This document shows positions 1,788 to 4,068 of a stretch of DNA of 32,000 nucleotides, one piece after another. The position numbers and the translations under genes were made by a program. Below the pieces are notes generated by a model, which saw only the letters and a program-made list of their open reading frames with translations, was not told where the DNA came from and made no database searches. The stretch lies in assembly GCA_963704435.1 (NCBI GenBank), contig OY969902.1:420001-452000 (forward strand), written 5' to 3'. This DNA comes from an uncultured archaeon. Lineage in GTDB: Archaea > Micrarchaeota > Micrarchaeia > Micrarchaeales > CABMGC01. Each line of letters opens with the position of its first letter. The stretch's first letter is position 1.

Positions 1788-2877
1788 CTATGGCCTGAAC
1801 AATTCTTCGAACCTCTGGGAGACCCTTTTCCTCAAAGTGTATGTATCGGCAAACCGCGCGTAGGCGAGCCAGCCCTCTAGGCTATTCCGAGCCTTCTCCC
1901 TTGTAATCTCTCCGTCACAATATTTGCGTTTAAGATTTTCAAGACGTTTCCAGATTCTTCTGGCGTTGCTTTTCTTTAGGAGCCTGTAGCGTCGGAATAT
2001 CCTAAAGCCGAGGAAAGTTATCCCCTTCCCAAGCGGAATTATCCTTGTCTTTTCCTTGTGGAGTTGTATCTTTAGGTTGTGTGACAGGAAATCTCCTATC
2101 TCCGCTCTCCATCCCTCCAATATCGCCTTATCGCTGTGAAGAATTACGAAGTCGTCCACATACCTGATGTAGTATCTGGCCTTTAGTTCGTGCTTGACGA
2201 ACCTATCAAGCTCGCCCATGTACACGTTCGCGAAAAATTGGGATGTAAGATTGCCTATCGGCATCCCCTTCCCGGGAATCTCGGTCTTATGGTTTTTGAG
2301 TATCGTCTGAATTAGCCAGATAACATTGTCGTCCTTTATCTTCCTGCCTACGATGCGCAGAAGAGTTTCGTGGTCTACAGTATCGAAGTAGTGACCGACA
2401 TCCCCTTTGAGCGCATAACCTACCGTCTGCCTATTGGCAAAAAGTTTGCGCTGCCCCCCCCCCCGACATCGTTGAATCCTTACAATTGAGAGAAACTTTT
2501 CTTAGAAACTTCTCGAACCTCTTAACTGCCATGTGCGTTCCTTTGCCTTTTTGGTTAGCGAAAGAATCATAGATAAAGTCCTTCTCCAGAATGGGACTTA
2601 TGACGTTGCATAGCGCATGATGTACCACCCTGTCCCTGAAGGGGGAAGCGCTTATCGTCCTTGTCTTTGGGTCTCTCACGATAAAAGTAGTAAGTGGAGC
2701 TGGCGAATAGGTAAAATCCAGCAGCTCGCCGTTCAGCTGGAAGAGATTGCTTTCCAACTTTTCCTCGAACTCTATGACGTAATCCTTAAGTGTTTTGCCA
2801 TTTCTCGCCTTCCTGAAGGCGAGCTCAAGATTTTTAAAGGAGCAGAGCCGGGGATATAGACGAGTGTAGGTTTTCAT
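1788..2877 (-). CDS. DGR-type reverse transcriptase, split into two frames by a G11 tract (N-part 2877->about 2454, C-part 2453->1788)
   Basis: N-part: LCSFKNLELAFRKARNGK, ISASPFRDRVVHHALCNVISPILE, QKGKGTHMAV. C-part in the -1 frame with no stops from 2453: YALKGDVGHYFDTVDHETLL, GMPIGNLTSQFFANVY (the I/LGxxxSQ signature of DGR RTs), catalytic RYVDDFVIL, ITFLGFRI, and C-terminal GWLAYARFADTYTL. The motif order resembles Bordetella phage bRT as I recall it. One G fewer in the tract gives a continuous ORF of about 362 aa. Confidence 0.85.
2454..2464 (-). repeat. Homopolymer C11 (+) / G11 (-) inside the RT gene, site of the frame break
   Basis: Read directly: ctg ccccccccccc gacatc. On the minus strand this is atg tcg ggg ggg ggg g|ca gcg. 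The downstream RT frame is reached by a -1 shift here. Confidence 0.9.
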
Positions 2878-2898
2878 ATCATCCCAGAATAGCCCTAG

Positions 2899-2908
2899 GA
2901 TGCAAGCC
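2899..2908. repeat. Inverted-repeat arm (gatgcaagcc) on the RT side of the TR
   Basis: Exact reverse complement of 3143-3152 (ggcttgcatc). Both arms sit next to a ccctagg motif (2893-2899 and 3138-3144). Confidence 0.6.
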
Positions 2909-2910
2909 GA

Positions 2911-2998
2911 GTCATTCCAAAACCATTGTTCTGCCTGTTGTTCGCATTGACGTTCCGGCGGTTGTTGTTGAAGTCGTTGACGTTGCGGACCAGAGGTC
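2911..2998 (-). repeat. DGR template repeat (TR), non-coding
   Basis: 88 bp aligns without gaps to 3410-3497 at a constant offset of 499, with 69/88 identical. All 19 differences lie at plus-strand T, which is minus-strand A. Read in the target frame it encodes GPLVRNVNDFNNNRRNVNANNRQNNGFGM, with 11 AAY codons. Confidence 0.88.
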
Positions 2999-3142
2999 CA
3001 ATAGTAACCCGTCTACTTAAATGCCACATGCGTGGCTACACCACAGCTTCGCGATTTCGGACATACTTACTAGGCGTCGCTGTTGAATTTCATGTCTAGT
3101 TTTCTTTCAGGCACTAGCACTGTAAACGAGTGTGTGGCCCTA

Positions 3143-3152
3143 GGCTTGCATC
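3143..3152. repeat. Inverted-repeat arm (ggcttgcatc) on the target-gene side of the TR
   Basis: Exact reverse complement of 2899-2908. Together the arms enclose about 234 nt that include the whole TR. Confidence 0.6.
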
Positions 3153-3219
3153 TATGAACTGCAACGTTCATAGCCGGCAGGAGTTTACCTGCCAAACCTA
3201 GGTAAAGTGATTGGGACGC

Positions 3220-4068
3220 TTAATCTCTTATTCTCAGTGCCTCAATCAGTTTGCGTATGGGTTCTGTTTTCTCTTCTTTGACTGTTTGAGATATTCCGGA
3301 AAGGCTTGCTTTTGCATCCTTGAGCAAGATTCCAAATTCCTCTGCGGTAACCCCACTTACTGAAATTGCCGCGGCTAGCTTAGGCTCGGCTTGCTCAAGC
3401 TCGACGCTCGCCACCCCAAAACCACCGTACTGCCAGTTGCCCGCAACGACGTACCGGCGGTAGTAGTCGAAGTCGCCGACGTAGCGGACCAGAGGCCTGA
3501 CCCCTTGACCGTCAATTCTCCATAGGTATCTTTGCGGGTCGGAAGGAAGATCATCTACTTTGGCGTAGTTGAGCGGCACTTTTGTCTTTTTATCCACTTT
3601 GCCCCAACCGGCCGTTTGAAGAAATTCATTTAGAACTATTACAGTCTCGGGTTCGGCCGTGACTATTACTTTACTACCTGTAACTTCAACGTTTAGAGGA
3701 TCAACAAATAAAGCAGCACCTTTCTTCCCTATCGCCTCTATAGGTATAGAAGAACAAGGGAATATCCATTGCCTTCCTGCGCCGTCTTTGTAGGCATCTA
3801 CGATGTCCTTGCCTTTCTTGAATACTCCATTCTTTTCTGGATAAACTAGCACTTCCCTTGCCCACGCAGGAAAATAATCCGCTTCCCTTAATTTTTTAAG
3901 CTCGTTAGCTCGGTCAGACCTCATCAGTATGTCGTCAAGCAAAACGTTAGATGGCAGGCCGCCCTTACCCTCTGCTAATTTTATTGCGTCCAGGTATCCT
4001 GCGTCTTTTCCCATAGGAACTATTCTCTGCCTTACTGCAGTTTCTTGGGCAAATGTTTGAGGCATCAT
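3220..4068 (-). CDS. DGR variable (target) protein, 282 aa
   Basis: The ORF contains the VR in frame (RPLVRYVGDFDYYRRYVVAGNWQYGGFGV). The VR end ...GGFGV resembles the N-x-G-F-R ending of C-type-lectin-fold DGR variable regions. A+T-richer codon usage than neighbouring genes. Confidence 0.8.
   Translation of the reverse strand: MMPQTFAQETAVRQRIVPMGKDAGYLDAIKLAEGKGGLPSNVLLDDILMRSDRANELKKLREADYFPAWAREVLVYPEKNGVFKKGKDIVDAYKDGAGRQWIFPCSSIPIEAIGKKGAALFVDPLNVEVTGSKVIVTAEPETVIVLNEFLQTAGWGKVDKKTKVPLNYAKVDDLPSDPQRYLWRIDGQGVRPLVRYVGDFDYYRRYVVAGNWQYGGFGVASVELEQAEPKLAAAISVSGVTAEEFGILLKDAKASLSGISQTVKEEKTEPIRKLIEALRIRD
3410..3497 (-). repeat. DGR variable repeat (VR) inside the target gene
   Basis: Counterpart of TR 2911-2998. 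It differs only where the TR has A on the coding (minus) strand. 10 of the 11 TR AAY codons are changed, to Y, G, D or V codons. Confidence 0.88.

Follow-up and report, generated by a model that had tools for sequence, protein, structure and literature searches.

A probable Micrarchaeota diversity-generating retroelement without Avd, its RT-16 RNA, and a guanine tract in its reverse transcriptase gene

A stretch of 32,000 nt from an uncultured archaeon (Micrarchaeota; Micrarchaeia; Micrarchaeales; CABMGC01 in the GTDB lineage), spanning positions 420,001-452,000 of the forward strand of contig OY969902.1 (GCA_963704435.1) and called the window in the following, harbors at 1788-4068 what is very probably a chromosomal diversity-generating retroelement (DGR) of the DPANN/Micrarchaeota type. 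We put the probability at about 90% that the locus is such an element, composed of a lectin-like target gene with a variable repeat (VR), an RNA in which the Rfam structure RT-16 adjoins a template repeat (TR), and a DGR-clade reverse transcriptase (RT), without the accessory protein Avd. Target gene with VR, TR, and RT follow each other in this order on the minus strand, and all coordinates and motifs that an initial annotation, made from the sequence alone, had given for these three co-oriented parts were recovered. For comparison, we analyzed 80 loci from species-representative genomes together with 80 independently fetched metagenome loci (160 in total), and 53 of the 80 genome loci each possess an adenine-specific TR/VR pair of their own, arranged in this order. 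While the minimal architecture pointed out in the initial annotation is real, it is not special to this instance but the norm within this RT clade; both the class of element and the layout lacking Avd are already known, from DPANN DGRs and from the category catalogued as "Architecture A," respectively.

Repeat comparison identified both 88-bp repeats that had been proposed, the VR in frame within the 282-aa open reading frame (ORF) 4068->3220 and the TR 499 bp downstream (TR 2998->2911 versus VR 3497->3410, start to start). All 19 mismatches between them are located at TR adenines (12 A>G and 7 A>T), an outcome with a chance probability of approximately 2e-12 given 29 adenines in 88 nt, and non-adenine positions are free of differences. 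Furthermore, identity falls to background just beyond both repeat edges; therefore, TR and VR are not part of a longer duplication. A third TR/VR copy, a second VR, or a remote target was not found in the 32-kb window, even when 12 non-adenine mismatches were allowed. With respect to the reading frame of the VR, the TR adenines are distributed over codon positions 1, 2, and 3 as 14/13/2 (mostly within AAC and AAT codons), which yields 15 variable codons, none of which can turn into a stop, and approximately 1.25e15 accessible protein variants. At the 3' ends of the repeats, TGGGGTGGC in the VR as compared to TGGAATGAC in the TR fits the archaeal motif for the initiation of mutagenic homing (IMH in the VR, IMH* in the TR), a TGGGGT/TGGAAT pair that has been described earlier in DUSEL4 nanoarchaeal DGRs (PMC4372165). 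The hairpin that follows the IMH in the window consists of 4 bp with a GAGC loop, and the corresponding hairpin of relatives combines a stem of 5-7 bp with a loop of GAA or GGA.

The target protein has 36 homologues, all of which are hypothetical or unnamed, and no Pfam or NCBIfam family could be assigned to it. In the alignment of these homologues, approximately 190 residues are conserved, while hypervariability is found exactly at the codons corresponding to TR adenines. The AlphaFold2 model of the target reaches a mean pLDDT of 88.9. A Foldseek search with this model returned no significant match; a nanoarchaeal DGR C-type-lectin protein (5ioo_A) ranked second with a probability of 0.57, followed by mannose-binding lectins, and a C-type-lectin-like fold of the target would seem likely.

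The RT gene starts with an ATG at 2877, 33 nt past the end of the TR as annotated initially, yet it is not the single ORF that it had been taken for, as a run of 11 G (2464-2454) splits it into the ORFs 2877->2431 and ~2453->1788 (148 and 158 aa). Deletion of one G results in an RT of 362 aa, 99% of which can be aligned with intact homologues of approximately 360 aa from Micrarchaeota, Aenigmatarchaeota, Woesearchaeota, and Nanoarchaeota, the best of which shares 74% identity. The translation contains all the DGR-type motifs that had been listed, i.e., motif 4 of the I/LGxxxSQ type, YVDD, and the N- and C-terminal blocks. The closest solved relative, with both RT halves aligned, is 8ub7_A (E 9.6e-51), a reverse transcriptase of 328 aa that we take to be the Bordetella phage DGR RT, as compared to approximately 1e-21 for group II intron RTs and 1e-17 for retron-type RTs; moreover, PHROG 1423 ("reverse transcriptase") matches the full RT length at 1e-125. 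Taken by its sequence relationships, the RT belongs to the DGR clade. The DGR interpretation of the initial annotation thus passed the tests on adenine-only differences, on a longer duplication, and on the RT clade.

An accessory RNA had been suspected in the 221 nt located 5' of the TR, and indeed the Rfam family RT-16 (RF03019) matches 3157->2999 with 68.3 bits (gathering score 50) over model positions 1-158. The true 5' end of the domain in the window is at 3202, and P1 aligns poorly with the Rfam model because two extra hairpins are inserted there. RT-16 was detected at gathering score in 12 of 13 relatives. The core alignment revealed compensatory changes in 17 of 21 pairs as well as a conserved AGUA...GAA, and the covariance model that we built from it (R1) scores 142.5 bits on the window and finds the core in 69 of the 80 genome loci and 66 of the 80 metagenome loci. 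The core is located on the RT strand in 61 genome and 62 metagenome loci, with its end at a median of 125 nt before the RT start, and for 44 of the 52 loci with a detected TR, this end and the TR edge are offset by -11 to +4 nt. RT-16 is the TR-flanking RNA of this DGR clade. The family was originally described as one of nineteen "RT" motifs found near RT genes, of which RT-10 alone had been connected with a DGR, namely as the TR-RT spacer of a phage (PMC5737381), and both RT-16 and RT-10 are reported to contain internal loops of the sarcin-ricin type (PMC13085918); we found no paper linking RT-16 to DGRs. Within the last codons of the target gene, a TATA-like GAATAAGA is present, and (C/T)(A/T)TAAATA boxes were seen at -31 to -33 relative to the 5' end of RT-16 in six Micrarchaeota relatives (L001-L004, L077, and L078); a box at such a fixed distance suggests that the DGR RNA may have its own promoter.

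In some relatives, the RT-16 core and the RT lie on opposite strands or are kilobases apart (L094, with the core at 2713-2872 on the minus strand; L045; L019; L009; L060; L014; L044; L120; L115), indicating that the module of RNA and TR and the RT are not always co-oriented. Furthermore, it should be noted that a 20-nt inverted repeat, CCGAAATCGCGAAGCTG (90% complementary), connects 1231-1250, within a 176-aa gene downstream of the RT, with 3044-3063 in the RT-16 core, which is probably due to chance.

The short spacer between TR and RT gene is connected to the 5' strands of RT-16 by a covarying bipartite helix. The two halves of this helix in the window are formed by GGCTTGCATC (2908-2899) with GATGCAAGCC (3152-3143) and by CCTAGG (2899-2894) with CCTAGG (3202-3197). 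When the 373-nt RNA is folded as a whole, spacer and RT-16 are paired in this way in the minimum free energy (MFE) structure; the 5' domain folded alone forms P1. Because the alignment must not be fitted to the structure, we anchored the loci on the CYACAY linker and on the last AAT[AG] before the RT and joined flanks of fixed length into an ungapped alignment; RNAduplex applied to long flanks of 130 and 72 nt had resulted in sprawling duplexes with a median z of only -1.4 and was replaced by these short anchored segments. For 59 loci, 72.5% of the cells at the ten anchor-adjacent positions are paired, as compared to 56.6% with shuffled partners (reached in 0 of 500 shuffles). The covariation score for the same loci is 0.519 versus 0.254 when shuffled and 0.10-0.26 when slid by 1-3 columns, and compensatory changes occur in 10 of 10 helix pairs, with the junction pair being U-A in 34 loci and C-G in 20. 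This was replicated in 43 new, distinct metagenome loci (73.0% versus 57.5%, 0 of 1000 shuffles; slid controls 32-51%). Moreover, cognate flank pairs are lower in duplex energy than non-cognate ones (mean rank 12.5 of 55, p ~6e-12) for the first half of the spacer, and the second half exhibits the same cognate specificity for the upstream region (p ~2e-11). The helix encloses the RT-16 core and the TR, placing the 3' end of the TR (GGAAU, IMH*) opposite the invariant ACAC that follows strand b.

The lack of an Avd-like ORF noted initially was confirmed by ORF scans and by a search with a hidden Markov model (HMM) that included a positive control. The 221 nt between the target stop (3220) and the TR (2998) are filled by RNA, 33 nt separate TR from RT, and the interval from target to RT offers no room for Avd. 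None of the 51 ORFs of 70-230 aa in window positions 1-14000 matched bAvd or 23S_rRNA_IVP, a six-frame ORF set covering all 32 kb of the window was likewise free of Avd matches, and 0 of 108 ORFs around 24 related loci matched an Avd family. As a positive control, the bAvd-like gene present in related loci matches Pfam PF22296 above its cut-off, and the HMM built from those bAvd-like genes detects them in 6 of the 160 loci and nothing in the 32 kb of the window. The layout without Avd is shared by approximately 96% of the 160 related loci. Architecture A has been reported for 29% of DGRs, with no avd elsewhere in the respective genomes, and an Avd-independent mechanism was proposed for it (PMC5758913).

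The frameshifting G tract was examined across assemblies and relatives. The locus is found in at least 6 other public assemblies from several projects that are 99.8-100% identical to the window, and apart from the G tract, mismatches are restricted to contig ends. The sole internal difference from two Logan contigs (11.6 and 5.3 kb) is the tract itself, with G12 instead of the G11 of the window; a fourth copy has G11. The tract is thus out of frame in all 4 assemblies covering it (G11, G11, G12, and G12), and among the 5.8 billion protein clusters searched, there was neither an in-frame full-length RT with more than 74% identity nor a full-length RT of this strain. At the homologous codon, L077 and L080, the RTs of which are 65% identical to that of the window, contain G11 with the same +1 shift, L078 contains G7 with a -1 shift and is likewise out of frame, and L097 contains G10 and is in frame. 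Interrupted G runs in L001 and L002 are in frame, as are the tracts of L051 (G10), L058 (G12), and L035 (G12). Among runs of at least 8 G/C, 13 of 19 in the genome set are located in RT genes or up to 150 nt upstream of them (RT representing 12% of the sequence; p 1.4e-8), and the same holds for 7 of 7 in the metagenome set (RT representing 37%; p 9e-4), with recurrent tract positions at approximately +400, +530 to +575, +936, and -15 to -34.

Tracts of this kind also occur in the sub-branch that does possess bAvd-like genes (L017, 5170-5547; L020, 5472-6008; L141, 973-2547; L100, 882-2486; L103, 363-1682; L110, 1112-1678), where G8-G11 is found at the junction of avd and RT. Avd and RT form one open frame in L141, L100, and L103 and separate frames in L020, L110, and L017, and a 465-aa protein from this sub-branch (P0095) contains both Pfam domains. 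L020 (G11 at ~5968, out of frame; GTDB genome) and L141 (G10 at ~1469, in frame; JGI metagenome) are otherwise the same element with identical flanks. In a third sub-group (L008, ~5177; L010, ~5976; L029, ~5976), the conserved N-terminus of the RT has a G8-G10 tract approximately 25 nt ahead of it, and this tract follows a short leader, M..KFVxTGGG, the frame of which differs from that of the RT in L010 and L029.

None of the 6 further assemblies covering the VR departs from its consensus, and the protein collection contains a single VR allele; this absence of polymorphism between assemblies bears on current activity and not on DGR membership. A 205-aa protein from a 1509-nt contig of the same strain (P0158) ends inside the VR at ...YYRR, and this contig break could reflect VR heterogeneity or coincidence. 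Since the RT is out of frame, the element would be silent at present in a clonal population, and it does look currently silent with a static VR. In evolutionary terms, however, the clean adenine-only divergence and the lack of other lesions in the RT argue for recent activity.

From these observations, the following mechanism can be outlined. A promoter in the last target codons would give rise to a single transcript comprising RT-16, TR, spacer, and RT mRNA. The spacer would fold back on RT-16, enclosing core and TR in one closed loop and bringing the GGAAU of IMH* beside the CYACAC junction, an arrangement that would amount to a circularly permuted version of the DGR RNA from the Bordetella phage, in which the structured spacer is located 3' of the TR. 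We infer that the RT binds the RT-16 domain without the need for Avd and primes cDNA synthesis in cis at the CYACAC junction. The RT would then miscopy adenines, and the cDNA would replace the VR by way of the TGGGGT IMH and the nearby hairpin. Finally, RT would be produced only at an in-frame length of the G tract or when slippage restores the frame. As a whole, this view of a two-component core (RT and circularly permuted RNA) with Avd-free priming in cis at CYACAC, hypermutation gated by the poly-G tract, and a tract that joins or separates Avd and RT in the sister branch is tentative, and we regard it as conceivable rather than probable.

An alternative with some merit, although we consider it doubtful, is that of a dead or decaying DGR, in which an inactivating mutation, the frameshift at the G tract, has become fixed and diversification is over. 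It would account for an RT that is out of frame in all four assemblies covering the tract, for the identical VR with a single allele on record, for a VR-side hairpin much weaker than in relatives, and for the imperfect junction-proximal part of the long-range helix in the window. However, no other lesion is present in 1.09 kb of RT, the catalytic motifs are intact, and 74% identity to intact homologues is retained, while the adenine-only TR/VR differences imply that no ordinary mutations have gathered since the last homing. Decay is also difficult to reconcile with a G tract at the homologous codon in four other species (RTs 61-65% identical), one of which (L097) is in frame, with the clean TR/VR pair that L077, L080, L078, and L097 have kept where covered, with the concentration of G/C runs of at least 8 in or near RT genes (13/19 and 7/7), and with the occurrence of the same element with G11 in L020 and G10 in L141.

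That the tract is instead a recoding site, at which polymerase slippage or ribosomal frameshifting provides a constant low level of full-length RT, appears unlikely. Runs as long as G11 can in principle support transcriptional slippage, and precisely G11, with the same need for a +1 shift at the same codon, is found in three different species. However, a G12 version requiring a different shift exists within the same strain, L097, L051 (both G10), L058, and L035 (both G12) are plainly in frame, and the tract length differs between the near-identical L020 and L141. Taken together, these observations point to a length-variable tract and not to a fixed recoding signal, and as far as can be judged from sequence, the pattern may fit a length-variable switch better than either a fixed recoding site or simple decay. 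No paper linking homopolymer tracts or phase variation to a DGR RT was found in the library searched.

There is hardly any chance that the RT originates from a group II intron, a retron, or a defence system and that TR and VR are an ordinary duplication, an alternative already refuted by the tests run, within their limits: while a group II intron RT/maturase (TIGR04416) is the best NCBIfam model and several homologues are named "group II intron RT" or "retron-type RT" in databases, its 145 bits are far below the 300-bit cut-off, the retron RT model (54 bits, cut-off 235) and the DRT models score lower still, no group II, retron, DRT, or Abi model of NCBIfam reaches its cut-off, no intron RNA family, group II included, was detected in Rfam scans, the presumed phage DGR RT 8ub7_A (1e-50) is the closest solved relative, and the repeats differ at adenines only, have sharp edges, and are matched by relatives with adenine-specific repeats of their own.

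Several points weigh against our reading of the locus as an Avd-independent DGR and against the mechanism outlined for it. Avd could be encoded outside the 32-kb window, and the C-type-lectin assignment of the modeled target goes back to one Foldseek match with a probability of 0.57. The long-range helix and P1, a hairpin of the Rfam model, compete with each other, and close to the CC/ACAC junction, the helix of the window is broken by a C-A mismatch and a shift of 2 nt, which, like the weak VR hairpin, fits decay as well as function. The differences in G-tract length between assemblies could be homopolymer sequencing or assembly errors, and as the assemblies are essentially clonal, with identities of 99.98-100%, an identical consensus VR is weak evidence of inactivity. 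Moreover, cDNA synthesis, the priming nucleotide, and Avd independence are steps that we infer.

Among known systems, DUSEL4 Nanoarchaeota DGRs (PMC4372165) are similar in the order of target with VR, TR, and RT on one strand, the TGGGGT/TGGAAT pair, and a hairpin inside the target gene just past the VR, and a C-type lectin fold was later shown for orphan target proteins of this type (PMC5006420). In contrast to these DGRs, the window hairpin is devoid of a GRA loop. The DUSEL4 study does not describe a 5' RT-16 RNA, a helix between spacer and RT-16, or G tracts in the RT, and while small ORFs in the interval from target to RT were put forward there as possible Avd-like proteins, structured RNA occupies this interval in the present clade. 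With the BPP-1 phage DGR (mtd-avd-TR-brt), the locus shares adenine-specific transfer from TR to VR, the RT clade (1e-50), an AAC-rich TR, the IMH/IMH* asymmetry, a structured RNA flanking the TR, and a duplex adjoining the initiation site. However, BPP-1 needs Avd, which was not found in the present 32-kb window, and its structured RNA (Sp, Rfam RT-10) of approximately 140 nt is located 3' of the TR, whereas here RT-16 is located 5' of the TR and 33 nt separate TR and RT. In the phage, the template:primer duplex arises from pairing between the Sp RNA and the 3' end of the TR, and priming takes place in cis from an adenosine of Sp (10.1101/2023.10.23.563531). Unlike in BPP-1, the 3' flank in the window reaches the structured domain through a long-range helix, and priming here may resemble that of the phage. 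Pairing of sequences up- and downstream of the TR has been reported as well, in a cryo-EM-based survey of RNA elements confined to Avd-bearing DGRs (10.1101/2023.10.23.563531).

Architecture A1 (Wu et al. 2018, PMC5758913) corresponds to the window in having a TR-RT core without avd or another accessory gene; this classification is based on gene order only and includes neither an RNA element nor a mechanism. Similarly, the window matches the full model of the Rfam RT-16 family above gathering score, but the family was described only as occurring "near RT genes," with a role in retrons or DGRs being speculative (Weinberg et al. 2017, PMC5737381); the Rfam model ends at the TR edge, and its P1 strands are those that pair with the post-TR spacer. 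Retron noncoding RNA (msr-msd with the a1/a2 helix) provides an analogy of layout only, in that a structured RNA is located 5' of the template and an end helix sets the 3' end of the template by the priming region. Unlike in retrons, the RT belongs to a different clade, an msd-type product or effector gene is missing, and a protein gene harbors the cognate VR of the template; retron membership is not supported, the RT model scoring under its cut-off and the adjoining RNA being RT-16 plus a TR with cognate VR. Finally, contingency loci with homopolymeric tracts (PMC2831843) resemble the RT gene in their long coding G run, the length difference between assemblies of one strain, and the presence of in-frame and out-of-frame homologues; in contrast to these loci, reversible switching in the window is putative.

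How reverse transcription starts in DGRs without Avd is an acknowledged gap. The locus and its approximately 150 relatives offer a defined small RNA (RT-16, TR, and a spacer of approximately 30 nt), a specific helix supported by covariation, and a single protein, and the question of Avd-less priming thereby becomes testable in vitro. The orphan Rfam family RT-16 gains a function, and the helix suggests how DGRs without Avd position their template. Furthermore, the recurrent G tracts suggest that some archaea may switch targeted hypermutation by slippage, which, if true, would mean that DGRs are controlled at an additional, new level and that surveys should be wary of dismissing DGRs on account of a "broken" RT.

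Features of the DGR locus, with positions given in window coordinates
Feature	Position	Strand	Basis
Target (variable-protein) gene, 282 aa	3220..4068	-	ORF; conserved N-terminal body of ~190 aa, then VR, then helical tail of ~62 aa
VR, 88 nt	3410..3497	-	In frame, target residues 191-220; TR comparison
IMH-like 3' end of VR, TGGGGTGGC, including TGGGGT	3410..3418	-	Same pair as in DUSEL4 nanoarchaeal DGRs
Weak hairpin GCTT-GAGC-AAGC, ~10 nt past the IMH	3389..3400	-	DNA folds and side-by-side view of relatives
TATA-like box GAATAAGA, putative promoter of the DGR RNA	3226..3233	-	Read from sequence; 31 nt before the RT-16 5' end
RT-16 structured RNA domain	2999..3202	-	Rfam RF03019 match; own model; coordinates checked
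RT-16 5' strand a	3202-3193	-	Part of RNA domain
Two hairpins inserted in RT-16 P1	3193-3176 and 3173-3152	-	Parts of RNA domain
RT-16 strand b	3152-3136	-	Part of RNA domain
Conserved CCACAC linker, followed by core to 2999	3137-3132	-	Part of RNA domain
TR, 88 nt, non-coding, 29 adenines	2911..2998	-	Repeat comparison; begins one base past the end of the RT-16 match
IMH* counterpart TGGAATGAC at TR 3' end	2911..2919	-	Compared with VR end TGGGGTGGC
TR-to-RT spacer	2878..2910	-	Pairing in MFE fold; covariation of the homologous helix across loci
RT N-terminal part, frame 1, through the G tract	2454..2877	-	ORF, motifs, homologue alignment
G11 homopolymer, shifting the RT frame by +1; G10 or G13 would be in frame	2454..2464	-	Translation; other assemblies; homologous tracts
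RT C-terminal part, +1 frame; motifs 1-7 including PIGNLTSQ and YVDD, thumb; stop 1790-1788	1788..2453	-	Translation, homologues

The genomic neighborhood consists of housekeeping genes, i.e., those encoding Cdc6/Orc1, the Pop5 subunit of RNase P, an SSB-like OB protein, aCPSF, and ribosomal proteins, and judged by these neighbors, the DGR is chromosomal rather than viral. The adjacent SSB-like OB-fold gene as well as Pop5, Cdc6, and aCPSF were considered as hidden accessory genes and rejected, as they are not syntenic with DGRs in 80 relatives. An ORF of 176 aa (780-1310, plus strand) is located between Cdc6 and Pop5, overlaps with both by a few bases, and matches no Pfam family; by its position, it may encode another RNase P subunit. 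Furthermore, the window contains a full-length archaeal 23S rRNA gene at 19437-22287 on the plus strand, while no 16S or 5S rRNA gene was detected at Rfam gathering score in the 32 kb. At the related locus L002, a 23S gene is located approximately 2.4 kb upstream of the DGR. Lastly, a tRNA-Val (CAC) gene was identified at 28302-28375 on the minus strand.

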